DNA of 64,000 nucleotides from Candidatus Bruticola sp. (GTDB lineage Bacteria > Vulcanimicrobiota > Xenobia > Xenobiales > Xenobiaceae): positions 91,452-155,451 of the forward strand of contig JBJEGD010000026.1 in NCBI GenBank assembly GCA_051874735.1, read 5' to 3'. Shown here piece by piece: positions 1,069 to 50,597 of this stretch (position 1 is the stretch's first letter; every line of letters starts with the position of its first letter). The translations under genes were made by a program, and so were the position numbers. The notes under the pieces were generated by a model, which searched no databases, was not told the origin of the DNA, and was given only the letters and a program-made list of their open reading frames with translations.

Positions 1069-1214
1069 TTTAGCTGATTTTATAACTTTAGTATAAACTA
1101 GTGGTGGGGGACTGCAGGGGCTCTTCGTTTGCATAGCATCGGTGGGTCCCTGTGCTTTTTATGGTTCGGTTGAGTTCGTTCTTTAGCAAATAATTATTTT
1201 TAGAGGTGAACTTT

Positions 1215-31171: not shown

Positions 31172-31184
31172 TTGAGGTGTTTTT

Positions 31185-32624: not shown

Positions 32625-32633
32625 GAGGTCGCA

Positions 32634-33194: not shown

Positions 33195-33214
33195 AAATGC
33201 GGAGGATAAACAGG

Positions 33215-34613: not shown

Positions 34614-36458
34614 ATGAGAAAATATAATTTATGGGCCTTAATTTTGGCTTTTGTAGTCTTTTATTCCGCTGCTCTGTCATCTGCCTGGGCTGCTGATGTA
34701 ATGCTGGGAGGCCAGGTTATCTTTCGTATAAATGATGAGGATCAAGCAAAAAAAATATCCCAAAAAATTGAAGCTATGTTGCAGAGGGGGGCTTCTTCGT
34801 CTTCAATTAAAGTCGTACGTAAAGATATTGCTGTAGCCTCGGAGGGGCAAGATAAGCAAGATAAAGATGAAGGTAGCAAGGGAGGGGCTAAAGCGAAAAA
34901 ATCTGTTTATAAAATATTTTGGGGAAGTGAATTAGTCATTGAAGTGAATGACGAAATTGCCAAGCAGAATGCTTCTTCTCCAGAAGCTTTAGCTAATTTA
35001 TGGGCCTCCAATATGCGCAATGTCGTCGATATTGGCCTGTTGAATGTTGATGTTGCTAGAGTCGTTTTACCTATAGAGGCTGATAAGGTTATTTACGCTT
35101 CTGGTTTGGCAACCGGTCCTTTGAGTGCTGAAGAGACTTCAGGTATCGTTGATATTGATATCGATCAGGAAAACGGCCTTATTAAGATAAAAGGGCGCAG
35201 GGTTGGAAAGTCGTCTATCGTTATTAGCAAAGGGGTTGCCTCCGTTTCCGTTTTTGTGCAGGTGAAAGATTGGGCCGGCAAACTTCCTCAGACGGTTAAT
35301 GTTGAAGTAACTGGCAATCCTGCACAGATTGATGACGTTTCCCAGGCGGTTATGCTTTCCATAGCGGCTAATACTTTCGTTCAGCCAGGCTGCAGTGTTT
35401 ATGTTGATGATTCCAACTTTAAACCGATTCCGGTGAGTAAAGGCGACAGTATGCGCTTAAGCGTGCCTGTGGGTATAAATGCTTCGGAAGATTATTTTGC
35501 GCTTCGCGGCAATGTTAATGTTGTAGTTAGCAATATAGAAGCTCCTGTAGTTGAGCAGAATCTGCTTCTAGTCAGCAATCGGCCGGAGCGTGTCAGCACA
35601 GATGGAGTATTAATGAAGTATAACTTCAAGAGACGTGAGCCCAGTCGTCTTATGTTCTCCCATCTTAATGCTTCCGAAAAGAATCGTTATTTGTGGATAA
35701 ATTTAGCTAATTTAAATGACGAACCGATAAAGATTGTTATCAGTCGCACTTCTGCTGGACCTGAGCGCAGCGAAATTTATGTCGGCCAAACGGCTGCCAA
35801 GCGCTTTTTAGAAAATTTGGCCAGTCGTTCCGGCTATATCATTACTCTTCCGCCCAATTCTGCTTTAGAGCTCTGTTCTTATGTGATGCGTCCTGAAGCT
35901 TTGGTAAGTGGATTTATAAATTTCCAAATTTTGGAAGGTACTAGCGCGACCGTTGAAGTGCGCAGTTCATTAAATCCTAATGCTAACGATGGACGTCCTC
36001 TGCCAGAAATAGGGGCCCCTTTTAATCCTTTCAAAATACATCCTCACGGAGTTTTTGCTCAGCCTTATTTTGAAAATGAAGGTGAATTTGTTATAGGTGG
36101 CAGTCCTTTAACTTTTCGTTATGGTGAGAGTCCTTGGCTGATTGATTTTGAAACTGGGCTGCCCAACACTGGCAATTTCGGGGTTTTGTATAAATCTTTG
36201 GTAGAATTAAAAAATCCTACTAAGCGTACAAAAACTGTGGGACTTTACTTTACGCCTTTGTCCGGCCCTGGCGGTGCTAACTTCCTGATAGGCAATTCTG
36301 TTTATCAGGCAGTTTTCCGCAAAAAAGGTGATGAAGTACTTGTAGCTAAAATCGAACTCTCGCCAGAGTCTAGCAGTATAATTGAAATTGTCACTTTACC
36401 TGAGGCGACTTCCTGTTATCCTGCCCAGTATGAATTGCGTGAACTGGACGGGCGCTGA
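34614..36458 (+). CDS. secreted 614-aa protein of unknown function
   Basis: Signal peptide MRKYNLWALILAFVVFYSAALSSAWA. It has its own terminator. No family recognised. Confidence 0.7.
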   Translation: MRKYNLWALILAFVVFYSAALSSAWAADVMLGGQVIFRINDEDQAKKISQKIEAMLQRGASSSSIKVVRKDIAVASEGQDKQDKDEGSKGGAKAKKSVYKIFWGSELVIEVNDEIAKQNASSPEALANLWASNMRNVVDIGLLNVDVARVVLPIEADKVIYASGLATGPLSAEETSGIVDIDIDQENGLIKIKGRRVGKSSIVISKGVASVSVFVQVKDWAGKLPQTVNVEVTGNPAQIDDVSQAVMLSIAANTFVQPGCSVYVDDSNFKPIPVSKGDSMRLSVPVGINASEDYFALRGNVNVVVSNIEAPVVEQNLLLVSNRPERVSTDGVLMKYNFKRREPSRLMFSHLNASEKNRYLWINLANLNDEPIKIVISRTSAGPERSEIYVGQTAAKRFLENLASRSGYIITLPPNSALELCSYVMRPEALVSGFINFQILEGTSATVEVRSSLNPNANDGRPLPEIGAPFNPFKIHPHGVFAQPYFENEGEFVIGGSPLTFRYGESPWLIDFETGLPNTGNFGVLYKSLVELKNPTKRTKTVGLYFTPLSGPGGANFLIGNSVYQAVFRKKGDEVLVAKIELSPESSSIIEIVTLPEATSCYPAQYELRELDGR

Positions 36459-36660: not shown

Positions 36661-37500
36661 ATGTGCAGAGCGCAGCGTACTTTGGCGAAAGAAGTTTCCT
36701 TCGAAGGAGTAGGGATTCATACTGGGAGAGCGAGTCACCTAACTATTAAGCCGGCTCCTGTCGATCACGGTCTCGTTTTTCTTAGTTCTGGAGAGTATAT
36801 CCCTGCTACCTATGAGTACGTTATTTCTACAAAGCGCTCTACAACGATTGGTAAGGGACAGGTCGCGGTAAATACTATCGAGCATTTAATGGCCGCTTTT
36901 GGAGGTCTTTCTGTGGATAATGCTCTTATAGAGATAGAAGGGCCGGAAGTTCCTATTTTAGACGGTTCTGCTTTGCCTTTTTGTCAGGCTATGGAAGAAG
37001 CAGGTATAGTTAATATCAAAGGCAGTGAAGTAGAAGATTATTATCTGAGCGAGCCCATTTTTGCTGCAGAAGGGGACAGTTTAGTTTTGGCTATGCCCGA
37101 TTCCCAATATAATCTTGAAGGAGCTGTCAGCTACAACAGTCCTCAAGTAGGTATTCAGCGATATCGTTACTGCGGATATGACAACTTTGTGACTCATATA
37201 GCTCCTGCTCGTACTTTTGGTTTTTGGTCTGAGGTAAAAACTCTCTTAGAAAACGGATTAGGGCAAGGTGGCGATCTGTCTAATGCTTTAATTTATGATC
37301 GTCCTGGTTTTAATGCTGCAGAAAATCAGCGTTTTGTCAATGAACCGGTGCGTCACAAAATTTTAGATTTAGCTGGTGATATTTGTCTGTTAGGTCGTCC
37401 GCTGTGTGCTTTTGTTTTGGCCGTTCGGGCTGGTCATAAATTGCATGTAGAATTCGTTCGCAAAATCGCTGAGGAGATGAAAAAAAATGCTGAATACTAA
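36661..37500 (+). CDS. lpxC: UDP-3-O-acyl-GlcNAc deacetylase
   Basis: RTLAKEVSFEGVGIHTG, TIEHLMAA, EVPILDGSA and HKILDLAGD motifs. Confidence 0.9.
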   Translation: MCRAQRTLAKEVSFEGVGIHTGRASHLTIKPAPVDHGLVFLSSGEYIPATYEYVISTKRSTTIGKGQVAVNTIEHLMAAFGGLSVDNALIEIEGPEVPILDGSALPFCQAMEEAGIVNIKGSEVEDYYLSEPIFAAEGDSLVLAMPDSQYNLEGAVSYNSPQVGIQRYRYCGYDNFVTHIAPARTFGFWSEVKTLLENGLGQGGDLSNALIYDRPGFNAAENQRFVNEPVRHKILDLAGDICLLGRPLCAFVLAVRAGHKLHVEFVRKIAEEMKKNAEY

Positions 37501-37912
37501 AGATATATTGCACAGGATTAATTACAAAAGTCCTCTTTTTTTTGTTGATATTGTTAACGAGTTAGAGTTTCCTAAAATCTCTGGTTATAAAAATGTGACT
37601 ATGAGCGAGCCCCATTTCGCTGGACATTTCCCAGGCAAACCCATTATGCCTGGAGTACTACAAATGGAAGCTTTGGTACAGATTTGCCGACTTCTCTATA
37701 TAGGGAATGAAGAGGCTCCTATTAAAGTAAAAGAGCTCGATTTAGTTGGAGTTAAAAAATTTAAGTTTAGAACTCCTGTTGTTCCAGGAGATCGCCTCGA
37801 TCTTTATGCTGAAGAAATTGAGCGTAACAACGAAAATATAGTGCTATCTGTTAAAGCTTGCGTTGGAGATAATGTCGCTTGTGAAGGAATACTTTCTTTC
37901 AGTTGGCAATAA
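37487..37912 (+). CDS. fabZ: 3-hydroxyacyl-ACP dehydratase
   Basis: HFPGKPIMPGVLQMEAL motif. It overlaps lpxC by 14 nt. GAGGAG RBS. Confidence 0.9.
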   Translation: MLNTKDILHRINYKSPLFFVDIVNELEFPKISGYKNVTMSEPHFAGHFPGKPIMPGVLQMEALVQICRLLYIGNEEAPIKVKELDLVGVKKFKFRTPVVPGDRLDLYAEEIERNNENIVLSVKACVGDNVACEGILSFSWQ

Positions 37913-38028
37913 AAGGCGAACGCACGACCGTTTGCGGCTAGCTGTAGGAAATTTGCCATATACAGACGAAATTATAAACCGTTTTGTGTTCGCTTTTGCA
38001 TAGAGACAAAAATTGGAGGATAAGCATT

Positions 38029-38967
38029 ATGAAGCCGATTAAAGTTGGCGTGGTCGGCATTGGTAGTATGGGGAAAAACCATGCTCGAGTGTGCGCCGAA
38101 CTACCTCAAATTGAACTTACAGGCATGGTGGATCTCGATGAAGCCAGAGTCGCCCCTTTAGCTCAGCAGTACGGCACACAGTATTATAAAGATTATAAGA
38201 GTCTCTATGGCAAAATCGACGCTGTAGTTATTGTTGCACCTACACCGCTTCACTATCAAATCGCTCAAGATTTTTTGGAACAGGGCGTTCATGTCTTGGT
38301 AGAAAAGCCCATTACTGTAGAGGTAAGCGAGGCTAAACGGTTAGTGACTTCCGCTAAGGAAAAAAATCTTGTTCTGCAGGTAGGTCATTTGGAGCGTTTC
38401 AATCCAGCCGTAATAAAGCTTAAGCAGATGGTGAGCAAACCTGTGTTAATAGAATGCCACCGCCTTTCTGGGCCTACTACTCGCAGTCTCGATGTCGGTA
38501 TTATTTGGGATTTAATGATCCACGATTTTGATATACTTCTCAGTTTATATAAATCTCCAGTAGCCGAAATCCATGCTATGGGGACTTCTATCTATTCTAA
38601 ATTTGAAGATGTAGCTCACGTGCAAATGCGGTTTGAATGTGGGGCTGTAGCCAGTTTGGTAGCTAGTCGCAATTCCGGAGAAAGGAAGCGCAGTCTCAAA
38701 ATTACTGAAGATACCGGACGAGTTTTGTCTCTCGATTTTATTAACCAAACTTTAGTTATTTCTCGTCCTGGCCCCGATGGGCGTCCCCTAGATTTGGAGC
38801 CAGTTCACATCGAGAAAGAGGAACCTCTACGTTTGGAACTCAGCAATTTTGCAGATTGTGTGATTAATCACAAGGAACCTGTTGTATCCGGTGAGGATGG
38901 CAAGCGAGCTTTGGAATTAGCTGTTCACGTTTTGGAGAATATGCAAAAAATTACGCTTTCTAAGTAA
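38029..38967 (+). CDS. Gfo/Idh/MocA-family NAD(P)-dependent oxidoreductase (GnnA-like position)
   Basis: ATG at 38029 follows GGAGG. Rossmann N-terminus IKVGVVGIGSMGKNHA and an EKP motif (LVEKPIT). It lies between fabZ and lpxA. Confidence 0.85.
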   Translation: MKPIKVGVVGIGSMGKNHARVCAELPQIELTGMVDLDEARVAPLAQQYGTQYYKDYKSLYGKIDAVVIVAPTPLHYQIAQDFLEQGVHVLVEKPITVEVSEAKRLVTSAKEKNLVLQVGHLERFNPAVIKLKQMVSKPVLIECHRLSGPTTRSLDVGIIWDLMIHDFDILLSLYKSPVAEIHAMGTSIYSKFEDVAHVQMRFECGAVASLVASRNSGERKRSLKITEDTGRVLSLDFINQTLVISRPGPDGRPLDLEPVHIEKEEPLRLELSNFADCVINHKEPVVSGEDGKRALELAVHVLENMQKITLSK

Positions 38968-39017
38968 AGCAGCAATAAAAATTTTTCCGCTTAAAGTACA
39001 GAGAGGAGAGCCAAGAG

Positions 39018-39827
39018 GTGATTCATTCCAGCGCTATAGTACATCCCGGGGCACGCATCGGTGAGGGAGTAGAAATCGGACCTTTTTCTATTATCGGAGA
39101 AAATGTAGAAATTGGAGACGGAACTAAAATTATGTCTTCTGTCGTCATAGATGGATGGACAACTATAGGCAAAAATAACAAAATTTATCCGGGTGTATCT
39201 ATTGGTCTGGCACCTCAGGATTTCAGTTATAAAGGGCAGCGTTCATTTGTAACTATTGGTGATAATAATGAGTTCCGTGAATATGTGACTATTCATAGGG
39301 CTGCCGATGAAGATGGTATTACTTCTGTGGGTAGCGGCAATCTGCTTATGGCGAATGTACACATCGCTCATAACTGCCATATTGGTAGTCAAATTACTAT
39401 GGCTAATTATGCTGGTTTGGCTGGTCATACTGTAGTAGAAGATCAGGCGGTATTAGGTGGGCTTGTAGGTATCCATCAGCACACCCGCATCGGTCGTTTG
39501 TGTATGGTAGGCGGATGCTCCAAGATAAATAAAGATTTGCCGCCCTTCAGTATTGTCGATGGTAATCCTTGTCGTCTCTTTGGTATGAATTTCCGAGGCA
39601 TGCGGCGCCGTGACATTTCTAAGGAAAGTCGTTTAGCTGTTCATAAAGCTATCAATATTTTGGGCAGTTGTGGACTGACCTTAGACGCCGCTATAGAACG
39701 CATAGACAGTGAGTTGGAGCATACCCCTGAAATTGAACATTTCCTGACTTTCCTGCGCGGTGATTCTCATATGGGAGTTCTCAATAAAGCCGGCAACGTA
39801 GGGGCGAGAGCTCACAGTAACGCTTAA
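39018..39827 (+). CDS. lpxA: acyl-ACP:UDP-GlcNAc O-acyltransferase
   Basis: GTG follows AGAGG. It has an IHSSAIVHPGARIGEGVEIGPFSIIG hexapeptide start, a catalytic-region HIAHNCHIG and a C-terminal helical domain. Confidence 0.9.
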   Translation: MIHSSAIVHPGARIGEGVEIGPFSIIGENVEIGDGTKIMSSVVIDGWTTIGKNNKIYPGVSIGLAPQDFSYKGQRSFVTIGDNNEFREYVTIHRAADEDGITSVGSGNLLMANVHIAHNCHIGSQITMANYAGLAGHTVVEDQAVLGGLVGIHQHTRIGRLCMVGGCSKINKDLPPFSIVDGNPCRLFGMNFRGMRRRDISKESRLAVHKAINILGSCGLTLDAAIERIDSELEHTPEIEHFLTFLRGDSHMGVLNKAGNVGARAHSNA

Positions 39828-39838
39828 TTGGTGCAGCT

Positions 39839-42286
39839 TTGACTGAAAATAGTCAGCAACAATCATCTGCTTATCCTCAGTTGACGGTTGCGATAATCGC
39901 CATAGAGCCTTCTGCCGATCTTCATGGAAGCAATTTGGCTAGGGCTCTTTTGGCGATTAATCCGCATCTAAAACTGGTCGGCGTAGGCGGATCGCATATG
40001 GCCGCGTCGGGAGTCAGTCTGTGGTTAAGGACCACAGACATGGCAGTTATTGGTCCCGGCGGGGCTATTGCTCGTTTGCCTAAATATATATGTTACTATT
40101 TGTACGTGCGCAGGCATTTGCTTAAGGAACATCCTCACCTCAGCATTTTAATAGACTGCCCCGCCGTTAACATGCGTTATGCTGGTCTTTTGACTCGCTA
40201 TGGCTATCATTCTGTTTATTACTTTCCCCCTTCTGCCTGGACAACCAGCGAAGTGCGTCTTAGACAGATTTTTAGCCGCACAGATAGGGTAATTTGTACC
40301 TTCTTGAGCAATGCCGAAAATTATCGCCGTCTGGGTATGGATGTAGATTTCTTCGGCCATCCTCTTATCGATATGCCCGAGTTAGGAATTTCTGCAGAAG
40401 AAGCTAAAAACAAGTTGGGGCTGGTAGGCGAAAATATTTTGGCTTTACTTCCGGGCAGTCGTGCTTCAGAAATAAAGTATCTATTGCCGATTTTTTTAGA
40501 AATAGTTGCTAAGTTGCATCAAGAAATAGAAAATTTGCAGGTACTTGTACCTTGTGCAACTCAGGCGCTTCGCAGGCAAATAGTTGCCTATATGGGGGAT
40601 AGGTTCCCTTATGTGCGTGTTTTAAATGGGCAGTCTCGTTTAGCCCTTTTAGCTTGTCGAGCAGCGTTGATGAGCTCTGGCACAGCTAGCCTGGAAGCTG
40701 CGATATTAGGCGCCCCAATGGTTCTGTCTTATAAACTTTGTCCCTTCGATGCTGTTATAGGTAAGTTCCTGATTTGGAGTGGTTTATTAAAAATTGAGCA
40801 TATCGGGTTGCCCAGTTTGGTCGCTGGACATCGCATTGTTCCAGAGTTTGTTCAAGATGAAGTTTCACCTGAAAATATTATCCCTCATTTGCGCAATTTT
40901 ATGCGAGATACTCCTGAGCGGTGCCAAATAAAACAAGATCTTTTAGATATGAGGAAGTCCATGGGCGCTCCTGGAGTAATTACCAAGATAGCCTCTTCTT
41001 TATATAGTCGCATTGAGAGCAGTGCTGCTGAAAGGATGGCTGAACCTTTCGACATTGTTATAACATCTAATTCTCCTGGAGAGGTGTCCACGTGGGTGCG
41101 ACGCACTGTTGCTCAGTTGGAGGTTAAAAACAAAGGGCAGTTTAGAGTTATAGTAGCGTTAGTTCCATGTCCTTATGCTTCCGGAGCTGAAGCTGAAGTC
41201 GCCGCTTCTCTGCCAGGCGTTTCCATTGTTCTGACGCCTAGTCAGACTGTGCGTTTAATGTGCGGCATGTTCAACGATTTTGAGCTGCGTAAAAAGGGAG
41301 TAGTAGTATTTTTAGGCGGTGATCTTATTCACGCTAAAATTTTGGCTTGGCGTTTAAAATATCGCTCTATAGCCTATGCAGCTAGATACAACAGGCTAAT
41401 CTACTATTTTGATAAAGTCGCTGCTTCAGATATTTCACTGGCCTCTGAATTATTAGAAGCTGGAGTTAATGAAGTTGTTAATATAGGTAATTTAAGTATT
41501 GATGGGGTTATTTCTGAAGTTGATAGGGAAGCAGCTGATAAAGTATCCCGTAGAACTGGCTTGAAGATTGGCATTTTCCCAGGATCGCGTTTTCTGCATA
41601 CTAAGATCGCTCTAGGAGTGTTTTTGCGTGTAGCTGCTCTAATAAAAACGCGTCACCCTGAGGTTGAATTTGTCCTTTCTGTATCGCCTTTTCTTTCCCC
41701 AGCTCGGCTGGAATCGGCACTTTGTAATCCTTTTAGTTTGGGGCTTCCGGTAGCTAAGGGTAAATTGCTCAGTGCTGATCGCATTGCAGTTGAGTGTATG
41801 TATGAAGATGAACAGGCTGCAGGACGCAGTTTTGAAGTTGAAGTTTTGTGGGGCCATCCTTATCAAGCTATTGCAGAAATAGATATGGCACTTACCATTC
41901 CGGGAACGAATACTGGAGAGTTGGGGTGTTGCGGCAAACCTATGGTAGTAGGACTTTCTGCTGATGCTTCCCTGCCCAGAGGAGGTTTGGGCGGCTTATT
42001 TGAAAGGATGCCAGTTTTATCAAAACTTAAGAGTTATTTGCGCTTGCGTTCTTATGCGCGTCACGGTTTCGCTGCGATCCCTAACCGTATTGCTTCTAGA
42101 GCTATCGTTCCTGAAGTTTTAGTAAAAAAAGATACGTCTGTGCTGGCCCAGCCTATTTTAGAGTGGATTGAAACTCCTGAGAAGTACGCCCGTGTTTCCC
42201 AAGATTTAAAAGACACTATGAGAACGACAGAGGGAGCGGGCAAGCGCATGGCTGAGTTGATCCTGGGTTTGGTTGATTCTAAATAA
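39839..42286 (+). CDS. lpxB: lipid-A-disaccharide synthase fused to a second LpxB-related GT-B module
   Basis: TTG start. Residues about 15-395 look like LpxB (IEPSADLHG..., YYFPPSAW, FFGHPLID, LLPGSRASE, GTASLEAAILGAPMV). Residues about 400-815 form a second module (ITSNSPGEVS, IFPGSRFLH, PGTNTGELGCCGKPMVV). Confidence 0.8.
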   Translation: MTENSQQQSSAYPQLTVAIIAIEPSADLHGSNLARALLAINPHLKLVGVGGSHMAASGVSLWLRTTDMAVIGPGGAIARLPKYICYYLYVRRHLLKEHPHLSILIDCPAVNMRYAGLLTRYGYHSVYYFPPSAWTTSEVRLRQIFSRTDRVICTFLSNAENYRRLGMDVDFFGHPLIDMPELGISAEEAKNKLGLVGENILALLPGSRASEIKYLLPIFLEIVAKLHQEIENLQVLVPCATQALRRQIVAYMGDRFPYVRVLNGQSRLALLACRAALMSSGTASLEAAILGAPMVLSYKLCPFDAVIGKFLIWSGLLKIEHIGLPSLVAGHRIVPEFVQDEVSPENIIPHLRNFMRDTPERCQIKQDLLDMRKSMGAPGVITKIASSLYSRIESSAAERMAEPFDIVITSNSPGEVSTWVRRTVAQLEVKNKGQFRVIVALVPCPYASGAEAEVAASLPGVSIVLTPSQTVRLMCGMFNDFELRKKGVVVFLGGDLIHAKILAWRLKYRSIAYAARYNRLIYYFDKVAASDISLASELLEAGVNEVVNIGNLSIDGVISEVDREAADKVSRRTGLKIGIFPGSRFLHTKIALGVFLRVAALIKTRHPEVEFVLSVSPFLSPARLESALCNPFSLGLPVAKGKLLSADRIAVECMYEDEQAAGRSFEVEVLWGHPYQAIAEIDMALTIPGTNTGELGCCGKPMVVGLSADASLPRGGLGGLFERMPVLSKLKSYLRLRSYARHGFAAIPNRIASRAIVPEVLVKKDTSVLAQPILEWIETPEKYARVSQDLKDTMRTTEGAGKRMAELILGLVDSK

Positions 42287-42949: not shown

Positions 42950-42985
42950 AGTGCTTATCCCCTGCCTTAGGCTGGGATAAGCACT
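42950..42985. terminator. hairpin between convergent operons
   Basis: agtgcttatccc pairs with gggataagcact, a 12-bp stem with an inner gcc/ggc. T-runs are weak. Confidence 0.65.
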
Positions 42986-43026: not shown

Positions 43027-44202
43027 TTAAGGCCGCATGGAAATCTCGGTTAAAATTTGAGCCATGCGGGCTGCTCCTCCGGGAGGGCCTAGTCTCTCTT
43101 GGCCGATAGATCCGCGCCGTTGCCGATCAGCTTTGTCTTGCATTAGGCGACATAGAGTTTCGATTATATCGGGATCGTAATCTTCACAAACAATAAGAGC
43201 CTCACCGAGCAGCCCCTTTTGTCTGGCCCTATACCACTTTAAACGAGTCTCTCCGCCTGGTTCATAAGCAACAACAGGAATACCGTGACCAGCCGCTTGT
43301 TCATGTGCTGTGCCCGCCAATCCTAGAGCGACTTGACTGTATTTTAGTACATCAGCTAGATGGCCTTTGATAAGAAAGAACTGAACTTGATACTCCGCCT
43401 TGTTGTCTGCAAGTTTAAGTTCGCTCCAACCCGGATAAGGTGCTTCGTTCATAACAAAACCCGGACAGGCCTGTGCTAACTTTGAGGTATCAATAGATGG
43501 AGCTACGGCAATAAAGGCACAAATTTTCTTATTTAAGCGTTGAGACAGCTGGCAACTTATTTCTAAAAGGCGAGGCAGTACCCTGTAAGTAGCTTGTCTG
43601 CTGCCGGGAAAGAGAGCTAGGCCTATTTCTTTGCTGCTGTCTAGACTGAAGTCCAGTTCTTGAGGAACCAAACCATCCATCATAGCATTACCTACCCAGA
43701 TAGCTTTAACTCCTTTTTGACGCAGACTGGCAGCTGTAGGTTCATCTCGGACAATAGAGCGAACTTTGAAAGTTCTCAGAACCCAAGCTTCTAGAGCTGA
43801 GTAAGGATGATGATAGTCAGATTTAGCCGTGCCAATGAAGGTTATTGGGCGTATACCAGATAGGGCAGCTAGAATAACTGGCCAAAGATCGCCGACAGCG
43901 GCAATGTGATTGAAACGGTGACGATTTGAGCGCAGCCAAAACAGCTGTTTTAAAGTTAAATAGGCTAAGCCGCCGCCAAGATCTTTCCAAAAATTACGCC
44001 AATCTTCTTGAATAAGGCCGCCGCTGGGCATGTCGCTGACAGGGCCGTTTATGGGAGCTATTCCTTTGTACGCTGAGCCTTCTCCAACCAAAGGTAAAGC
44101 TTCTATATCGATTGATTTAGGCAGCTCCTTAATTATCTGGGCAGCTATGGAATCTTCACCGGCTCCGTTAGATACAAGTAAAAGGCGTTGAGGGGCGGGC
44201 AT
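43027..44202 (-). CDS. LpxB-related GT-B glycosyltransferase (lipid-A-disaccharide synthase-related type)
   Basis: ATG at 44202 follows AAGGAGAG. It has LLLVSNGAGEDSIAAQII, LFPGSRQAT and GLAGTAHEQAAGHGIPVV, the same architecture as the second module of the lpxB fusion. Confidence 0.7.
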   Translation of the reverse strand: MPAPQRLLLVSNGAGEDSIAAQIIKELPKSIDIEALPLVGEGSAYKGIAPINGPVSDMPSGGLIQEDWRNFWKDLGGGLAYLTLKQLFWLRSNRHRFNHIAAVGDLWPVILAALSGIRPITFIGTAKSDYHHPYSALEAWVLRTFKVRSIVRDEPTAASLRQKGVKAIWVGNAMMDGLVPQELDFSLDSSKEIGLALFPGSRQATYRVLPRLLEISCQLSQRLNKKICAFIAVAPSIDTSKLAQACPGFVMNEAPYPGWSELKLADNKAEYQVQFFLIKGHLADVLKYSQVALGLAGTAHEQAAGHGIPVVAYEPGGETRLKWYRARQKGLLGEALIVCEDYDPDIIETLCRLMQDKADRQRRGSIGQERLGPPGGAARMAQILTEISMRP

Positions 44203-44234
44203 AATCTCTCCTTTTAAGTTTTTTAGCAGCAAAT

Positions 44235-45080
44235 TTAAGCTAAACTTATCAACTTACAGTGACTTAGCTGTGGATTATCCATATTGTATTCAATTTCATT
44301 TATATGTTTGGCGAATGCACCAGTTTGTACAATAAAAGAACCATTAACTTGACAAGGTGAGTCCAGTTGGGTATGGGTATGGCCTCCTAAAATCCAGGTG
44401 CCTGGCGGCGTATTAACCGCCAATTGCTGATCTCGGTCAAAACCTATGTGACTGATGATAACTAAATTAGTTCTTAGACCTAATTTAGCTGAGCAGCGAT
44501 CAGCTATCTGAGGCAAAGTTGTCTCTGCTTTGAAAAAACGAAAACCAAATATTTTTTCCCATATGGCATTATGAGGGTATTGCACCGGCATGGCTGATAA
44601 AATCAGCAAGGCACAATTTGAGCTCCAAGAGCTGTTAAAAAGCGCCAGACCGGGAATCCAGCGCTCTGAGGATAGTTCTTGCCAGGCCGAGGAGTTACGC
44701 CAGTTAGCAGAACTGCAGTCTATTATTGGTATATCTTGAATTTGCTCGACAAATTCGCGCTGAGTTAAATGACCACTAAGACGTATATCAGACAAATTAG
44801 TACAGATAAGCGGAAAAGAACGCTGTCTAGCTCTTTTGTCTAGAATACGCCTTTGATAATTGAACTCTCGATTGCCCATAGCCATGGCTGCGCAGCCGAC
44901 AGAACTCATTTTATCTAAGTTTGGTTCAAAGTTTTTCCATACTGTGTTAGAACCGATTAGAGCGTCGCCGCTGTCAAAATAAAGGGCTTGACCTGCGGCT
45001 ATAGAGGCCTGGGCCTGGCTTTTGAGCCAAGCCAAAGCCTCGCTGCGTCCGTGCATATCGTTGGTATGATAAATAATCAT
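44235..45080 (-). CDS. UshA-type calcineurin-like metallophosphoesterase (N-domain only, 281 aa)
   Basis: Motifs YHTNDMHGR, DSGDALIGS, GNREF, ISHIG and GGHTH. Arg replaces the usual His of the GNHE motif. Confidence 0.8.
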   Translation of the reverse strand: MIIYHTNDMHGRSEALAWLKSQAQASIAAGQALYFDSGDALIGSNTVWKNFEPNLDKMSSVGCAAMAMGNREFNYQRRILDKRARQRSFPLICTNLSDIRLSGHLTQREFVEQIQDIPIIDCSSANWRNSSAWQELSSERWIPGLALFNSSWSSNCALLILSAMPVQYPHNAIWEKIFGFRFFKAETTLPQIADRCSAKLGLRTNLVIISHIGFDRDQQLAVNTPPGTWILGGHTHTQLDSPCQVNGSFIVQTGAFAKHINEIEYNMDNPQLSHCKLISLA

Positions 45081-45105
45081 GCAACTTAGAGATGACTTAT
45101 AACAA

Positions 45106-45678
45106 TCAATTTTTGCTTCGCTGGGAAACTTTTGAGCTTCTTTCCTGAGCTACTTCGGTATAGACTTGACGGTAGCGATCTATTCCTATATATCTACAAA
45201 TTACTATACCGTAACCTATTATCCAACCGACTCCAGCTAGAGAAGCACCACCCAAACATACCCCTAATATTAAACCAATGCATCCGAAAATTAAACTGTT
45301 TAGCATAGGCTTAGAATCTAGTGATATTGAGTAACCTAAAGAAAGCCCAATAATAGCTCCCACTAGTCCGTAGTAACTACCTTTGCCTATATCTGCAGCC
45401 GTGGTTGCAATAGCCAAACTCGCTTTAGCTGCCTGCACAAGTGAATATTCAGACTGGCCAGCATCGATAATGGAGTTCGCTCCCCACAAGAATCCCATCA
45501 TCAGTCCCATGCCGGCGAAGCAGAGGCAGTACAAAGTCCTCTGTTGTTTGGTAAGAAAAGTTACAGACTGTTCTGTATTACTAGTCTTATTCGCGGTAGA
45601 CGATGAATTTTTTTTATCTTGCTTAGCGTTTTTCTTTTCTTTTTTTTTGCTGTCTTTGAGAGACGCCGGATCACTCAT
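45106..45678 (-). CDS. membrane protein with a Lys-rich N-terminus and Gly-zipper TM segments
   Basis: It has KKKEKKNAKQDKKNSS followed by about 4 Gly/Ala-rich hydrophobic segments. It overlaps the upstream gene by 8 nt. Confidence 0.6.
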   Translation of the reverse strand: MSDPASLKDSKKKEKKNAKQDKKNSSSTANKTSNTEQSVTFLTKQQRTLYCLCFAGMGLMMGFLWGANSIIDAGQSEYSLVQAAKASLAIATTAADIGKGSYYGLVGAIIGLSLGYSISLDSKPMLNSLIFGCIGLILGVCLGGASLAGVGWIIGYGIVICRYIGIDRYRQVYTEVAQERSSKVSQRSKN

Positions 45679-46654
45679 GTTTTTTATCTTTGTCCTTCAG
45701 AGATAATTTTGCCAATTTTTTTATTTGCTCCCATTTTTTTAAAGGAAGCTGACGCATCGCAATTTGGCGCATCGATACTTTATGTGCTTGAACGGGATCG
45801 CCGGACCACACTGACTGACCGGCTGGAATATCTTTATCCACGCCCGATCTAGCTGCTACTGTGGCAAAATCGCCGATATGACGCCCTTCTTTTACCAAGC
45901 ATTGGCCGGCGGCTATGGATAATTTTCCAATATAAGCTCTCTCCTGCAGACAGTTTTGAGAAATAATTATAGCCATAGGCTCTATAATAGATTCTTTGTT
46001 AATGCAGGCTAAATTGTCTATGCGCACTCCTTGATGAATAAGTGCTTTCCTGCCTATAAAGCAGCGAGCACCTATTTCAATATCACTTCCCAAAGAAGCT
46101 TCATCTTCGATAATGGTTAGCGGCCCTACTAAACTTGAACCTTCCAATTTTACTTTTTTCCCTAAAGAAACTCCGGGCATCAATTTAGTGTCAGCTCCTA
46201 CAAAGCTGTCGCTATCTATGCTGACATGAGCTTGAATTTGGCAGTTATCGCCAATGGTTACTCCATCTGCTATAACGGCAAAGGGGCCTATATAGGCTGT
46301 AGGAGATATGTTGGCAGAATCGCTTATGCAAGCACTTTCGTGTATCCCCGGCTTAAAGCGAAAAGGAGGATAATACAAATCGAGGAGCTTAGCATAGGCT
46401 ACTCGAGAATTTTTCACTAATATAGCCGGAATATTTGTTTGTATTTTTTCGGGTATAATTACTGCAGCAAAGCCGAGGTGCACTGCTTCTTGTAGTGAAC
46501 TTTCGTCTTCAGCGAAAGTAATTGCCGAGTTTAGATTGTGACTTAAAGCTGCGTCCATACCTGTGACTTCTTTTATAACCAGAGAAGCACTTTCCGGTAT
46601 GTTCAGACGACCTTCAAGATAATCGGCCAGCTCTTTTAAGTTCTTTACCACCAT
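45671..46654 (-). CDS. LpxD-like acyltransferase paralogue (full-length architecture, catalytic His position is Lys)
   Basis: The N-terminus is like the LpxD uridine-binding domain (LKELADYLEGRL...ITFAEDESSLQEA...AVIIPE). It has LbH repeats. The region IDNLACINKESII aligns to E. coli IDNQCQIAHNVVI. Confidence 0.75.
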   Translation of the reverse strand: MVVKNLKELADYLEGRLNIPESASLVIKEVTGMDAALSHNLNSAITFAEDESSLQEAVHLGFAAVIIPEKIQTNIPAILVKNSRVAYAKLLDLYYPPFRFKPGIHESACISDSANISPTAYIGPFAVIADGVTIGDNCQIQAHVSIDSDSFVGADTKLMPGVSLGKKVKLEGSSLVGPLTIIEDEASLGSDIEIGARCFIGRKALIHQGVRIDNLACINKESIIEPMAIIISQNCLQERAYIGKLSIAAGQCLVKEGRHIGDFATVAARSGVDKDIPAGQSVWSGDPVQAHKVSMRQIAMRQLPLKKWEQIKKLAKLSLKDKDKKHE

Positions 46655-47964
46655 AATTCAGGATAATCACTCCAAGTTTCTGCCGGATCTATATCCGCTT
46701 CTTCTAATGTTAGACTGCGTACAGCCAAGGGAACGCACATGGTACGCCCGTTCAAAACTGATTCATAACCTAAACCTATCAAGTCTGCTCCCAAGAGATC
46801 GGTGTAGTTAGCCCTGACAATAAACTGGGGCACTCGGCAAATAGGGCGGCCGTGGTGCAGCAAGAAAGCTGTCTCGCATCGCCTAGCAAACTGTCCCTCT
46901 TTTTTCAGGTGACTAGGAAGAGGAGTCAACCTGTCCAATAAAATGCCAAAGTCTGTCTTAGCGCATAATTCGCCTAAAGAATAGTCTCCGCCTTTGAGAA
47001 TTAAATTAGAATGACCAGGTTTAGGTGGCTGTCCCCAAGGACGCACTGCCGAACCGTTAGGTACAACTCCGCAGGCTCTCGCTGTGCTTAAATCGTAAAT
47101 GCCGCCTACTAGTTCGCCTTGGCGTATTAGTGGTAGTGATGTTTTAGTAATTCCTTCACCGTCAAAAGGTACACTGCCAAAGCCTCTGGGTAAAGACGCA
47201 TCATCCGTTATATTTATGCAAGGGGACAGCCACGGAGAATTTTTGGGTAAAGATTTAAAAAGCGGTGCATCAGCATAAAGCATTTCTTTGGCGAAATCTT
47301 CGAGTAATTTACCGCAGGCGCTCGATGTAAATACGCCAGGAATCGTATTGCTATCTGGCCAGGCCATCTCTGTGGAATGTACGGAACGCCAGGTTAACCT
47401 GCAGAGCATTTCTGCAGGAGAATGCTGAGCAGAAGTACTGTAGATGGCGTCTCCCACAGGTATACCGTCGTTGGAGTTTAAAGTTAGCAGATGTAGAATG
47501 CGGCTGGCACAGCGCTCTCCGCTTCTAGTTGTGATTTTTAACGTATGCTGCAATAACCTGGCACTAAGAGAAAAACGCCTGTTGGGCAACAAAGAAGGAA
47601 GCATAAAATCAAGCCCTTGAATTAAGGCTTTAAAATGCATAATTGAATCTTCGAGTTGTTGCGAAGTTTCAGAGATGTTGGAAACTGAGGTAGGAGAAAT
47701 TAAGCCCTTTTGTGAGAATGAACCGCGCTTGCCGTTGGCCGCACTTTGGGCAGCTTTCTGTAGTAAATCGCTAATGGAAAATTCTCCCTCAGACCAAACA
47801 TAACCAAGACGTCCGTCTATATTTATTCTGAGCCCTAGTCCGGGTTTAAATATACGCTGATCAGGCTGAGCTAAGTTGACTTCTGTATAAACTTCTTCGG
47901 AAACTTCAGCATCTCTGGCCATACCGAGTGCTTTGACCAGCAGTTGATTTGCATAACTGGCCAT
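46645..47964 (-). CDS. TldD/PmbA-fold protein (PmbA-like, no HExxxH)
   Basis: The GSVPFDGEGITKTSLPLIRQGELVGGIYDL block is typical of the family. No HExxxH motif is present anywhere. Confidence 0.8.
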   Translation of the reverse strand: MASYANQLLVKALGMARDAEVSEEVYTEVNLAQPDQRIFKPGLGLRINIDGRLGYVWSEGEFSISDLLQKAAQSAANGKRGSFSQKGLISPTSVSNISETSQQLEDSIMHFKALIQGLDFMLPSLLPNRRFSLSARLLQHTLKITTRSGERCASRILHLLTLNSNDGIPVGDAIYSTSAQHSPAEMLCRLTWRSVHSTEMAWPDSNTIPGVFTSSACGKLLEDFAKEMLYADAPLFKSLPKNSPWLSPCINITDDASLPRGFGSVPFDGEGITKTSLPLIRQGELVGGIYDLSTARACGVVPNGSAVRPWGQPPKPGHSNLILKGGDYSLGELCAKTDFGILLDRLTPLPSHLKKEGQFARRCETAFLLHHGRPICRVPQFIVRANYTDLLGADLIGLGYESVLNGRTMCVPLAVRSLTLEEADIDPAETWSDYPELWW

Positions 47965-47966
47965 AG

Positions 47967-48614
47967 TTATTCTTTATTTCCCAAAATCAGTATATTATAG
48001 GGCAGTACTTCCATATCTGATAGAAGTTTTTGATAATTTGGTTCGCATATAGACGTGCTGTTTTCATTAGGAAGCTTAAGCAACCAAAGTTGCTCCACAG
48101 AGTCAACTTGACTAACTTCGGCGCCATTAATAGCTGCCCACTGTCTGGCTACTCTTCGGCTGTTTTGAGCATCCAGATATAAGAAGCAGTATTGTAGGTT
48201 CTGTTTTGTAACTATTTTTACGAAACTTTCTAATCCGGAAGCAGAGTCCTGAGCAGAAGCTCCCCGCAAATCTAGACATGGAGTTCCTTTAAATACAGAA
48301 GCTTGAGAATGAGTTAATTTTGTTAATAGATCTGATTTCAGATGTTTTGAACTTTGAGAATGATTTTGGGAGGCTTCAGGAAGAGTGCTGTAATTATTTA
48401 AAACAACCTCAGCTTGAGGATCTAAATAGCGTCTTAAGGTGCCCTGCAGTCCTTTAACTAGAAAGGCCGTTGGCAATCCGGGAGCAAAGCGCTCCAGACT
48501 GACATTTAATCTATTTAATTCTTTATCGAAACTAAAGCTTGTGAAACGTACCCCCTCATCATTAAAAGTTTTAGTCAATTTATTTAAAATTTCCTCAGGG
48601 GTATACTTATCCAT
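47967..48614 (-). CDS. hypothetical protein (first gene of the operon)
   Basis: 215-aa ORF with an AAAGGA RBS. It ends 2 nt before the next start. No family recognised. Confidence 0.6.
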   Translation of the reverse strand: MDKYTPEEILNKLTKTFNDEGVRFTSFSFDKELNRLNVSLERFAPGLPTAFLVKGLQGTLRRYLDPQAEVVLNNYSTLPEASQNHSQSSKHLKSDLLTKLTHSQASVFKGTPCLDLRGASAQDSASGLESFVKIVTKQNLQYCFLYLDAQNSRRVARQWAAINGAEVSQVDSVEQLWLLKLPNENSTSICEPNYQKLLSDMEVLPYNILILGNKE

Positions 48615-48699: not shown

Positions 48700-48754
48700 G
48701 CGCCGTTCAGTCTTGAATCTCTTCTTTCAAGGAGGAGATTAATCTGCACGGCGC
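48700..48754 (-). terminator. long imperfect hairpin after the Pro-rich/TPR gene
   Basis: gcgccgt pairs with acggcgc on the outside, with inner cag/ctg and gaatctc/gagatt pairs. A T-rich tail follows on the minus strand. Confidence 0.55.
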
Positions 48755-48827: not shown

Positions 48828-50597
48828 TTAGAAAACGGCTGTACCTGGATCTGTTTTAGCTTGCTGGTAAAAATCTTGCCAGAGTTTTTTCTCATTGTTC
48901 ATGCGTTCAACGCTGACATTTTTACTCTTAATTTTTGCGACTATGTCTTGCCGACTGCGTTCTACTTCTTTGAAACGACCTGGTTTCCAAGCGTACTCGT
49001 CAAGATTGTATATATCGCGGTTGCGGTACTCTCCCACTTTATAAAGGACAGCGTAATTTTTTTCCATGTAGTACAAAGTTTCAAACGAAAAAGGATTAAG
49101 TTTGTTAGCTTTTTCGAAACACTGAGCTGCATCGTAGAAATAACTCTCTACAGGACGGTTTTTATCCTGAGCTTTATCGCCTTTGCGTAAGCGCTCGTAT
49201 CGGTATATACCCGCCCTTAAGTAACTTTGCCCTTGATTAAATTTAAATGAGGAATAAGTCCAGAAGCCAAGAGCGACAGCTATGATTAAAGGTCCTATCA
49301 CCAGAGCGAAGATGCTAGCTGCTTTATATGTGGCGGTGGAGTCTCCTTTGTCTTTGGGGGCATTACCGGACACAATGCGCTCTCTGGCAGCATAAAAATC
49401 TTGTTCTATAGTTTCTTTAGTTTTGGAAGCTAAAGCCCTTATTTTAGCTTCGTATCGGTTAGAAGCCATGATTTTTGTGCATATATCGGAGGCCGCTTCT
49501 AAAAAACCAGAGTGACCGATCTCTTCAGCCATTAACAGCCAATCCTCAGGATCGCTGCTGGTAATTTCGTGAATAACTTCACCTGGGCGAATGGAATCAT
49601 CTAGTTCCAACGCTTTGGAAAAATGGACTGCTGCTCTTTCTGGTTCGCCTATGGCCATAGAACATAGGCCTAAGCCATAGTGAGCATCAATATTATTAGG
49701 GAAGCGTTTCAGACTATTCTGAATATCAAAGTGCAGCTCTGAGAATTTTCCTTTGTCGAAAAGCTCAAGCTGTTCTTCCGTAAAAATATTGGCGATTTTG
49801 CGGGAAGTTACTGGAATTTTAGGAGTTGTCGACTGAGAGTTTTGCTCAGCTTCGACCTTTACTACATTTTGGGATACCGAAGGAGTTGCGGGCGGTACCG
49901 TAGGCTGCGAAGATAGCTGTGCTGACCTTTCTGTTGGTATATTCGCAGAGGTTGGGGCTGTCTGAGGATATCCCGGCTGCATAGGTCTGGGCTGGGGCGG
50001 TCTGCCTCCCGGTGTACCTGCGAGCACGGGAGCAGACTGAGGGTATCCCGTCTGCATAGGTCTGGGCTGGGGCGGTCTGCCTCCCGGTGTACCTGCGAGC
50101 ACGGGAGCAGACTGAGGGTATCCCGTCTGCATAGGTCTGGGCTGAGGCGGTCTGCCTCCTGGTGTACCTGCGGGCATGGGAGCAGACTGAGGATATCCCG
50201 TATGCGTAGGTCTGGGCTGAGGCGGTCTTCCTCCTGGTGTACCTGCGGGCATAGGAGCAGACTGAGGATATCCCGTCTGCATAGGTCTGGGCTGAGGCGG
50301 TCTTCCTCCTGGTGTACCTGCAGGCATGGGAGCAGACTGAGGATATCCCGTCTGCATAGGTCTGGGCTGAGGTAGTCTTCCTCCTGGCGTATTTAAAGGC
50401 ATGGGAGCAGACTGAGGGTGTCCCGGATGCATGGGGCTAGGCTGGGGGGGACGGGGAGTATAGCTTTGCCTTGATGAATACGGTTGAGATGTACTGGGAA
50501 TTGCAGTTTGAGCACTGAAATTATCCGCAGGAGTACCCTGGCTATCCTGCTGGTCTTGTAGTGTTAAATTGCTGCGCGGAGGCATTTGCATGCTCAC
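48828..50597 (-). CDS. single-pass membrane protein with an N-terminal Pro/Gln-rich tandem repeat, a TPR-like segment, a TM segment and a C-terminal domain
   Basis: GTG start follows AAGGA. It has six or more units of PMQTGYPQSAPMPAGTPGGRPPQPR, a TPR-like AHYGLGLCSMAIGEPERAAVHFSKALELD and TM segment IFALVIGPLIIAVALGFWTY. Confidence 0.75.
   Translation of the reverse strand: MSMQMPPRSNLTLQDQQDSQGTPADNFSAQTAIPSTSQPYSSRQSYTPRPPQPSPMHPGHPQSAPMPLNTPGGRLPQPRPMQTGYPQSAPMPAGTPGGRPPQPRPMQTGYPQSAPMPAGTPGGRPPQPRPTHTGYPQSAPMPAGTPGGRPPQPRPMQTGYPQSAPVLAGTPGGRPPQPRPMQTGYPQSAPVLAGTPGGRPPQPRPMQPGYPQTAPTSANIPTERSAQLSSQPTVPPATPSVSQNVVKVEAEQNSQSTTPKIPVTSRKIANIFTEEQLELFDKGKFSELHFDIQNSLKRFPNNIDAHYGLGLCSMAIGEPERAAVHFSKALELDDSIRPGEVIHEITSSDPEDWLLMAEEIGHSGFLEAASDICTKIMASNRYEAKIRALASKTKETIEQDFYAARERIVSGNAPKDKGDSTATYKAASIFALVIGPLIIAVALGFWTYSSFKFNQGQSYLRAGIYRYERLRKGDKAQDKNRPVESYFYDAAQCFEKANKLNPFSFETLYYMEKNYAVLYKVGEYRNRDIYNLDEYAWKPGRFKEVERSRQDIVAKIKSKNVSVERMNNEKKLWQDFYQQAKTDPGTAVF
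49981..50430 (-). repeat. 75-bp head-to-tail coding tandem repeat, six copies plus degenerate flanks
   Basis: Units begin (a/g)taggtctgggct at 49981, 50056, 50131, 50206, 50281 and 50356. The first two units are identical by eye, and partial copies sit at both ends. Confidence 0.9.

Follow-up and report, generated by a model that had tools for sequence, protein, structure and literature searches.

The six-gene unit and its relatives

The stretch of DNA analyzed here, a 64-kb window from Candidatus Bruticola (Vulcanimicrobiota, class Xenobia) of a gut-derived clade, is an envelope-biogenesis region. Its plus strand carries bamA, three copies of skp, a truncated lpxD, lpxC, fabZ, gnnA, lpxA, an lpxB::lpxB2 fusion and an lmtA-like gene. 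Past the lmtA-like gene, six genes lie on the minus strand and are followed by a gene for a TPR protein, lptC, lptB and lptFG. The six minus-strand genes, which the original prediction described as one operon holding divergent counterparts of consecutive lipid A steps (LpxD, LpxH and LpxB) and three partners, are the subject of this study. With their flanking hairpins, they are listed below in the order of transcription; lengths are in amino acids (aa).

47967–48614, minus strand: x215, 215 aa, two small alpha/beta domains (predicted), cytoplasmic
46645–47964, minus strand: PmbA/TldE-like protein, 439 aa, PF19289
45671–46654, minus strand: LpxD-like paralog, 327 aa, matching NCBIfam LpxD models below cut-off
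45106–45678, minus strand: Mem, 190 aa, membrane protein with a Lys-rich N terminus
44235–45080, minus strand: MPE, 281 aa, UshA-type metallophosphoesterase with a GNRE motif
43027–44232, minus strand: GT401, 401 aa from a TTG start, TIGR03492; the likely start is the ATG at 44202
48700–48754, minus strand: hairpin between the TPR gene and x215, then TTATTTATAAT; from folding energy
42950–42985, minus strand: hairpin, then a T-rich tract, where the GT401 and methyltransferase genes converge; from folding energy

All six co-directional open reading frames (ORFs) were found where they had been predicted, and the first four junctions were +2, −10, −8 and +25 nucleotides (nt). The last junction is +32 nt when GT401 is read from the ATG at codon 11, which is the NCBI start of the 391-aa product (P0070); the TTG start would give +2. 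Both hairpins are exactly as placed and both beat shuffled sequence: the one at 42950–42985 has a folding energy of −24.9 kcal/mol (z = −3.95) and the one at 48700–48754 of −22.7 kcal/mol (z = −4.25), with 0 of 200 shuffles folding as well in either case. The first is a probable bidirectional terminator, and a different hairpin takes its place in locus L012. The second is probably the terminator of the TPR gene and would lie upstream of the unit's own promoter. Counterparts with differing sequences were present in L012, L014, L016, L017 and L022, and none was present in L018–L020. In Xenobia the TPR gene always precedes the 215-aa gene, and in L018–L020 the two are just 7–59 nt apart with no hairpin between them; the 5′ boundary of the unit therefore varies between genomes, and the TPR gene may belong to the same unit. 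From the layout of the sequence we infer that the six genes form a single transcript. The protein-level remarks of the original prediction were all reproduced: a PmbA/TldD-type protein without HExxxH, an LpxD-like protein with a Lys at the catalytic position, a Lys-rich membrane protein with small-xxx-small motifs, a UshA-type phosphoesterase with GNR and an LpxB-related glycosyltransferase.

MPE is 100% identical to a protein of an NCBI metagenome-assembled genome under the name Candidatus Bruticola sp. Related loci were gathered by exact-protein look-ups and by a phosphoesterase-alignment scan of 185,579 species genomes (73 loci), and the window proteins were mapped onto them by BLAST. Exact-protein look-ups aimed past the ends of the window added nothing useful. 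The full six-gene order, with the TPR gene before it and with the lpt genes and the inverted lpxB-to-lpxC block on its flanks, was found in at least 10 gut-derived contigs, across which phosphoesterase identity falls from 79% to 42%. Because this order recurs in at least 10 other contigs and each gene has conserved homologs, we regard the six genes as real; their co-conservation in relatives also means that the gene-neighborhood check did not overturn the original prediction. About 30 more distant loci, labeled Vulcanimicrobiota, UBP9, unclassified or evidently wrongly, have their lipid A genes all on one strand in the order skp, short lpxD, x614 (a secreted protein described below), lpxC, fabZ, (gnnB), gnnA, lpxA, lpxB, lpxB2, PEMT (the methyltransferase), (Mem), MPE, GT401, (Rce1-like), where brackets mark genes that are not constant. 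The LpxD-like gene often follows on the opposite strand, and MPE is the sole phosphoesterase in the one-strand cluster.

LpxB or LpxB2 was also encoded at 40 of the 72 MPE loci, and the GT401 gene lay immediately downstream of MPE at 33 of the 72. Two proteins from metagenomes, P0104 (640 aa) and P0218 (650 aa), join the two in an MPE::GT401 fusion. Mem, MPE and GT401 make up the widely conserved core; the PmbA-like gene is kept in two lineages, and the 215-aa gene in the gut Xenobia clade only. Several metagenome-assembled genomes carry a Vulcanimicrobiota-type cluster under the labels Burkholderiales, Bacillota, Synergistia or Melainabacteria (L025, L028, L032, L034, L035, L037, L046 and L049); these labels are probably binning or classification errors. 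One of them, L046, labeled Candidatus Melainabacteria, is the exception in a genome scan with exact family-specific peptide patterns that gave no other Cyanobacteria-labeled locus, a scan in which divergent members could be missed. A gene-level account of lipopolysaccharide (LPS) genes in Eremiobacterota was not found in our literature search. The cultured relative Vulcanimicrobium alpinus, a Gram-negative bacterium, contains abundant 3-hydroxy fatty acids (PMC9758169).

The window context places the six genes inside the one lipid A/LPS region of the genome, beside canonical early enzymes, and both this context and the one-strand relatives bear out the assignment of the unit to lipid A synthesis. 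The claim that LpxD-like, MPE and GT401 are a self-contained divergent copy of consecutive steps did not hold, since canonical LpxB (in the fusion at 39839–42286), LpxA, LpxC, FabZ and a His-containing LpxD are encoded next door. The same canonical LpxB and His-containing LpxD also rule out that the six genes make up a whole missing half of the pathway. Canonical lpxC, fabZ, lpxA and lpxB and the His-containing truncated lpxD lie just upstream on the opposite strand, so that the six genes would instead complete an ordinary pathway. We think it probable, with moderate confidence, that they are the Xenobia-specific inverted distal part of the Vulcanimicrobiota lipid A cluster, which completes the pathway and does not duplicate it.

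The phosphoesterase and the lipid X-forming step

To our knowledge, the formation of lipid X is the sole step of the Raetz pathway known to have unrelated enzymes (LpxH, LpxI and LpxG). LpxI, from Alphaproteobacteria and others, has an unrelated fold and attacks the beta-phosphate. UshA is a UDP-sugar hydrolase that cuts a pyrophosphate, the same kind of bond as that cut by LpxH, and 5′-nucleotidases need a C-terminal nucleotide-binding domain. In the 64-kb window, no ORF of at least 120 aa matched the models for LpxH, LpxI, LpxG, LpxK or WaaA.

MPE matched the UshA N-terminal domain in a profile search (E = 2.3e-30), and its NCBIfam matches were of the UshA, SoxB and nucleotidase types, with none of any other type. 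Its structure model has the metallophosphoesterase fold, and the closest solved relatives are enzymes of the 5′-nucleotidase family, UshA among them. In an alignment of 26 family members, the metal ligands D8, H10, D39, N70, H211, H234 and H236 were invariant or nearly so, and the G69-N70-R71-E72 (GNRE) motif was invariant (26/26). When a profile search of 1.84 billion cluster representatives was followed by a motif count, GNRE was present in 55 of 69 short single-domain family hits, whereas long 5′-nucleotidases have GNH[ED]. MPE thus shares the N-terminal metallophosphoesterase domain of UshA and the 5′-nucleotidases but differs from them in size (235–281 aa in the family versus approximately 550 aa), in having Arg in place of the catalytic His of GNHE and in lacking both the signal peptide and the C-terminal 5′-nucleotidase domain. 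The window protein stops after this N-terminal domain; the C-terminal one (PF02872) was seen only in distant hits of 459–480 aa. Since catalytic motif I starts as early as residue 5 and a signal peptide is lacking, MPE is taken to be cytoplasmic.

The exchange of His for Arg in the third metallophosphoesterase block has been described as occurring "only in LpxH" (Opiyo et al., 2010, PMC3087551). In LpxH, the Arg concerned (R80) binds the 1-phosphate of lipid X, and its Ala mutant is 7000-fold less active (PMC6286764). LpxH, like MPE, is a calcineurin-like dinuclear metallophosphoesterase with Arg for His in the GNH block, and the two are further alike in being cytoplasmic and, as proposed for MPE, membrane-associated, in their lipid A gene context and in the reaction proposed for MPE. 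Homology of MPE to LpxH beyond the superfamily motifs was not detected by sequence or profile comparison, and membership of the LpxH family was ruled out on sequence and fold. With regard to the helical cap that binds the acyl chains in LpxH, the Xenobia MPEs have an insertion of approximately 35 aa past the GNRE block that is not found in other members.

Mem is a small integral membrane protein whose Lys-rich N terminus is on the cytoplasmic side; it has 11 Lys or Arg residues among its first 45, at least two transmembrane segments and repeated small-xxx-small motifs. It matched no Pfam or NCBIfam family, and Pfam at E ≤ 1 gave noise alone. In most Vulcanimicrobiota-type loci, a membrane ORF of 110–225 aa, homologous or analogous to Mem, abuts the start of the MPE gene, with a 1-nt overlap of the two in L003. 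Mem is a probable membrane anchor or partner of MPE, judging from this pairing. LpxG of Chlamydia, also a calcineurin-like phosphoesterase, has a transmembrane helix at its own N terminus (PMC6286764), whereas the membrane segment that goes with the MPE family would be a separate gene product, Mem. Both LpxG and LpxI are non-orthologous replacements at the LpxH step, as MPE would be. The lpxI gene was itself found through its position among lpxA, lpxD and lpxB in genomes without lpxH (PMC6286764), and many of the bacteria without lpxH, though not every one, carry it (Opiyo et al., 2010, PMC3087551). For this step, reviews as late as 2025 name LpxH, LpxI and LpxG alone (PMC12444477), and a fourth hydrolase was not described in the literature naming these three together.

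The reading of the phosphoesterase as the counterpart of LpxH is credible in view of GNRE, the metal ligands and the lipid A context. MPE is the best candidate for a fourth, non-orthologous lipid X-forming enzyme, an analog of LpxH, LpxI and LpxG: a UshA-derived protein that would have converged on the LpxH Arg and a candidate pyrophosphatase for UDP-2,3-diacylglucosamine or its version with 2,3-diamino-2,3-dideoxyglucose (GlcN3N).

The more divergent members of the family have another setting. In Armatimonadota and neighboring candidate phyla, an MPE homolog with 24%–30% identity is usually preceded by two genes, which in L053 pass the cut-offs for KdsD/KpsF (TIGR00393, 319 bits) and KdsC (TIGR01670, 157 bits). 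The run in these loci (L051–L080, for example L053 8414–14743) reads kdsD, kdsC, phosphoesterase, a 620–680-aa multi-pass protein, a membrane protein of approximately 430 aa and a GT2 glycosyltransferase; the multi-pass protein has a weak LIC_10190-family match, and proteins resembling membrane glycosyltransferases occur in the run. Because it directly follows kdsD-kdsC, the Armatimonadota MPE is also in an LPS context.

A different role for MPE has to be weighed at this point. An LpxH or LpxI encoded elsewhere in the genome could make lipid X, leaving MPE to hydrolyze UDP-sugars, UDP or UMP in a UshA-like control of precursor flux, or to remove a phosphate or pyrophosphate from an intermediate of lipid A ahead of its methylation or glycosylation. 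This would suit a protein that lies in the 5′-nucleotidase/UshA branch and not in the LpxH family, that has no evident lipid-binding cap and that in Armatimonadota stands beside kdsD, kdsC and glycosyltransferase genes rather than lpxB, and the lpx search covered the 64-kb window of the genome. It is harder to square with a cytoplasmic enzyme that lacks the C-terminal nucleotide-binding domain needed by 5′-nucleotidases, carries an invariant Arg in place of their catalytic His (an exchange that has been reported in LpxH alone), occurs in two proteins as a fusion with a GT19 paralog and is the sole phosphoesterase in a compact cluster otherwise missing exactly the lipid X-forming step. We consider this alternative unlikely, though it is the strongest competitor to a lipid X-forming role.

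Two LpxD paralogs, three glycosyltransferases and the accessory genes

The 327-aa LpxD-like protein fell below the cut-offs of the NCBIfam LpxD models (163.7 versus 207 bits, and 143.6 versus 242.5 for TIGR01853), with mainly its N-terminal half matched. Its match to the N-domain family PF04613 scored 23.6 bits versus a cut-off of 30.8, and this domain was recorded for the L003 and L007 orthologs. Opposite the catalytic His it has Lys ("IDNLACINKE" versus "IDNLVQIAHN" in A. baumannii LpxD). The truncated LpxD encoded on the plus strand consists of a beta-helix and C-terminal helices; it aligns to E. coli LpxD residues 101–318 with GHN opposite AHN and with H239 kept, and it scored 193.6 bits versus 242.5 (TIGR01853) and 207.0 versus 207 in the same two models.

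Thirteen short LpxDs, 20 LpxD-like proteins and six canonical full-length LpxDs from related loci were aligned to C. trachomatis LpxD, whose numbering is used below; residue roles and chain assignments were taken from PMC6286764. In the known enzyme, H247, Q244, Q248, H284 and the oxyanion Gly come from one LpxD chain, and the N-domain residues and D240 come from the adjacent chain (PMC6286764). The short LpxDs keep H247 (13/13), G265 (E. coli G257; 13/13), Q244 (8/13) and H284 (7/13), and in all 13 the N-domain is absent and D240 (E. coli D232) is changed to Gly. The LpxD-like proteins keep F43 of the uridine-binding N-domain (18/20), D240 (20/20) and N241 (20/20), the last two being the Asp-Asn of "IDN," and H247, G265, Q244 and H284 are each kept in 0 of 20. 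Both sets of residues are kept in the six canonical full-length LpxDs.

The position of the catalytic His in the LpxD-like proteins is occupied by K, R, D, E, N, A, P or Q, with Lys in three of 20 and His in none. A Lys acting as an alternative catalytic base was therefore ruled out, and the Lys of the window protein, as one of eight residues found there, is not considered functional. Because all 20 have lost the catalytic His (H247), the oxyanion Gly (G265) and the pyrophosphate-binding His (H284), the LpxD-like protein cannot supply independent acyl transfer by the known mechanism. The losses in the two paralogs are reciprocal, chain by chain, and this suggests that short LpxD and the LpxD-like protein form an obligate heteromer with a complete site at their interface. 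The LpxD homotrimers of E. coli and C. trachomatis have the same left-handed beta-helix and C-terminal helices and an active site between adjacent protomers; the arrangement proposed here differs in that the truncated paralog alone has the residues of one chain and the LpxD-like protein alone those of the chain next to it. A heteromeric arrangement for LpxD was not found described in the literature consulted. The suggestion of lipid A synthesis in an "unusual split form" is apt for LpxD, with its reciprocally degenerate paralogs.

In one lineage (L042, L044, L047 and L049), a full-length His-containing LpxD lies between lpxB and lpxB2, and there are two tandem TIGR03492 genes. L049 has both this inserted LpxD and another at the usual position.

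Each cluster encodes three GT19-type proteins, namely LpxB, LpxB2 and the TIGR03492 protein, which is GT401 in the window. The LpxB half of the 815-aa fusion (residues 15–383) scored 248.6 bits with TIGR00215 (cut-off 190.25). The LpxB2 half is 41% identical to a separate 387-aa gene product of L003, and in the non-Xenobia relatives LpxB and LpxB2 are encoded by separate adjacent genes. GT401 is a member of the "lipid-A-disaccharide synthase-related protein" family TIGR03492 by the curated cut-off (273.7 versus 219.2 bits), with residues 18–396 aligned to profile positions 1–394 of 396; it scored 21.1 bits with Pfam LpxB (PF02684; cut-off 22.6) and gave no TIGR00215 match and no Protein Data Bank (PDB) sequence match at E ≤ 1. 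TIGR03492 was not mentioned in the literature searched, and what is newly added here to the family is its constant pairing, and occasional fusion, with a GNRE phosphoesterase.

The three proteins were aligned with E. coli LpxB, whose numbering is used, and residue roles were again taken from PMC6286764. There, S200 and R201 bind the UDP pyrophosphate, T277 and E281 are further UDP-binding residues, D98 is catalytic and W126 lies in the acyl-chain groove (PMC6286764). The PGSR motif (S200 and R201) and T277 are kept in all three, and W126 and the exact D98 and E281 positions are kept in LpxB alone; in GT401, W126 is absent and the acidic residues are shifted by one (VGD; E-Q). From these residues we infer that LpxB is the disaccharide synthase. 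GT401 is a distant, GT19-like paralog of LpxB and is probably UDP dependent. LpxB2 and the TIGR03492 protein would add other sugars to lipid X or to the disaccharide, which is the least certain part of our model, and they might stand in for the LpxK- or WaaA-type decoration not found in the cluster.

Three GT19-like proteins and two LpxD-family proteins in one region, together with the separate opposite-strand position of the six genes in Xenobia, could also be read as a second pathway, in which the unit has its own acyltransferase, pyrophosphatase and glycosyltransferase and makes a separate acylated amino-sugar glycolipid in parallel with lipid A. The original prediction had offered such a pathway as one of its two options, and it found no support: the lack of a second LpxA or LpxC argues against it, the putative acyltransferase is without H247, G265 and H284 in all 20 sequences, and in most relatives Mem, MPE and GT401 lie on one strand inside a single lipid A cluster. 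We therefore regard a parallel glycolipid as distinctly improbable.

The remaining two members of the unit are the PmbA-like and 215-aa proteins. The former matched the PmbA_TldD C-terminal domain (PF19289, E = 1.8e-29, 102.9 bits versus a cut-off of 22), and its best PDB match was 1vl4, a PmbA-related protein (E = 1.3e-8). The HExxxH zinc site of the TldD-type protease is absent in 15 of 15 PmbA-like orthologs, and no adjacent TldD partner was found in the window or in related loci. Across these 15 sequences, the UBP9-type lineage included, 109 positions are invariant. Both in Xenobia and in the UBP9-type loci L024, L025, L027 and L028 (0.6–2.8 kb away in the latter), the PmbA-like gene is co-directional with the LpxD-like gene and upstream of it; in the UBP9-type loci, the genes beside it, encoding proteins of approximately 600 and 550 aa, matched no family.

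The 215-aa protein had 16 homologs in 5.8 billion proteins, and the two with names are both from Candidatus Bruticola; in the fetched loci, the gene was found only in the Xenobia-type arrangement. Its predicted fold, two small alpha/beta domains, had generic neighbors alone (Smr, NifU-C and TusA), giving no functional pointer, and Pfam at E ≤ 1 gave noise. Both proteins are cytoplasmic, and tight junctions (+2 and −10 nt) join their genes to the LpxD-like gene. A role as non-enzymatic partners is probable for both.

The clade restriction of the 215-aa protein and the lack of a known link between PmbA-like proteins and lipids are what would be expected if the six genes were neighbors with no shared function, the LpxD-like and PmbA-like genes being decaying or regulatory relics and the operon-like spacing incidental. 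Such an explanation is very improbable given that the six-gene order persists across at least 10 contigs, even where phosphoesterase identity has dropped to 42%, and that two of the junctions overlap, by 8 and 10 nt. Relics would also not be expected to hold residues invariant across deep lineages (D240 and N241 in 20 of 20 LpxD-like proteins and the 109 positions of the PmbA-like proteins), and the losses in the LpxD paralogs are reciprocal, not random.

Neighboring envelope genes and the proposed pathway

The other features of the region are as follows.

26887–29979, plus strand: BamA, by family match
30176–31171, 32634–33194 and 33197–33688, plus strand: three OmpH/Skp ORFs between bamA and lpxD, by OmpH/Skp matches
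33689–34402, plus strand: truncated LpxD, 237 aa, matching LpxD model positions 103–332 of 345
34614–36458, plus strand: x614, a secreted conserved 614-aa protein with a clear signal peptide, between lpxD and lpxC
36661–39827, plus strand: lpxC, fabZ, gnnA-like and lpxA, the canonical early lipid A genes, by NCBIfam models
37984–38967, plus strand: GnnA-like UDP-GlcNAc 3-dehydrogenase, between fabZ and lpxA
39839–42286, plus strand: LpxB::LpxB2 fusion, 815 aa, TIGR00215
42273–42941, plus strand: PEMT/ICMT-family membrane methyltransferase, LmtA-like, PF04191 and PF04140
48828–50597, minus strand: TPR protein, 589 aa, TPR repeats and one transmembrane segment at residues 427–445

The early enzymes passed their cut-offs, with 224.8 bits for LpxC (TIGR00325, cut-off 187.25), 113.7 for FabZ (NF000582, cut-off 113) and 308.8 for LpxA (TIGR01852, cut-off 231), and the GnnA-like protein matched NF040723 (E = 9.5e-82). 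The GnnA-like gene suggests a lipid A backbone of the GlcN3N type; its partner aminotransferase gene, gnnB, adjoins in L005 and L043 and was not found in the 64-kb window. The methyltransferase is a constant member of the cluster and in one-strand relatives lies between LpxB2 and Mem-MPE; its match to LmtA (TIGR04571, E = 5.5e-11, 42.7 bits) is far below the cut-off of 325. LmtA is the lipid A 1-phosphate methyltransferase, and if the protein encoded here acts on the 1-phosphate, it would fit a route through lipid X. With its GnnA-like and distant LmtA-like genes, the cluster recalls the lipid A of Leptospira (GlcN3N made via GnnA/GnnB and 1-phosphate methylation by LmtA), from which it differs in that the LmtA match is so far below the cut-off (42.7 versus 325 bits).

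Nearly all related lipid A clusters have x614 between lpxD and lpxC, with 30%–67% identity, and the sole family signal of this protein is a faint DUF3370 match; it may be a periplasmic or outer-membrane component tied to the lipid A genes. A 479-aa protein with no assigned function is encoded between the first and second Skp ORFs (30176–33688 region, plus strand). Within the gene for the TPR protein, 6.4 tandem copies of a 75-nt unit (49962–50444) code for a Pro-rich 25-aa repeat. Elsewhere in the window, a 1079-aa ORF (1206–4445, plus strand) joins a sugar-1-phosphate nucleotidyltransferase (residues 5–336) to a phosphoglucosamine-mutase-like domain (residues 386–829) and may be a fused route to a nucleotide amino-sugar, and a 609-aa protein (8181–10010, plus strand) contains a SpoIIIAA-like ATPase segment (E = 3.7e-22, under the cut-off), the host being a diderm outside Firmicutes. 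Rfam and tRNA scans of the window were empty, and promoter and terminator consensus scans of the window gave results not above shuffle expectation.

Our model for the unit can be set out by steps. In the LpxD step, the LpxD-like protein would be a non-catalytic, substrate-binding protomer; from it would come the N-domain for uridine binding and the Asp for reading the acyl 3-hydroxyl, and from the truncated LpxD the catalytic His, the oxyanion Gly and the His that contacts the pyrophosphate. The full site would exist only at the interface of the two proteins. Such a heteromer would have fewer active sites than the homotrimer. In the LpxH step, Mem would hold the cytoplasmic MPE at the inner membrane, where MPE would split UDP-2,3-diacyl-GlcN (or GlcN3N) at its pyrophosphate, releasing UMP and providing the neighboring LpxB with lipid X. 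The invariant Arg of GNRE would take the role of LpxH R80 and bind the sugar 1-phosphate. The TIGR03492 protein, like LpxB2, would be a UDP-dependent GT19 paralog that probably puts a further sugar onto lipid X or the disaccharide. The PmbA-like and 215-aa proteins would be non-enzymatic accessory proteins, with the PmbA-like protein linked to the LpxD-like subunit.

Taken jointly, a fourth lipid X-forming family (derived from UshA/5′-nucleotidases, with a convergent GNR, in Vulcanimicrobiota, Armatimonadota and their neighbors) and an obligately heteromeric LpxD form a tentative proposal, which we regard as a serious possibility and hold with less confidence than the placement of the six genes in the lipid A cluster. 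Several points weigh against our model. The Armatimonadota MPE is linked to genes for 3-deoxy-D-manno-octulosonic acid (Kdo) and glycosyltransferases, not to lpxB. A short LpxD occurs with no LpxD-like gene in the fetched 10-kb flanks in L021, L034, L039, L048, L050 and L069, and, by analogy with LpxA, which works without an N-domain, the short LpxD might be active by itself. The genome beyond the 64-kb window searched here may hold a canonical lpxH or lpxI, and the model assigns the PmbA-like and 215-aa proteins no mechanism.

If MPE does form lipid X, a fourth enzyme would close the gap at this step for at least two phyla of Terrabacteria-side diderms, would improve annotation of the pathway in metagenomes and would show a convergent His-to-Arg switch. 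The signature we propose for it is a short cytoplasmic UshA-like domain with GNRE beside lpxB, TIGR03492 or kdsC. If LpxD is indeed heteromeric in these bacteria, it would be a clear case of an active site divided between duplicated subunits, and it would warn against calling LpxD present or absent from single hits.

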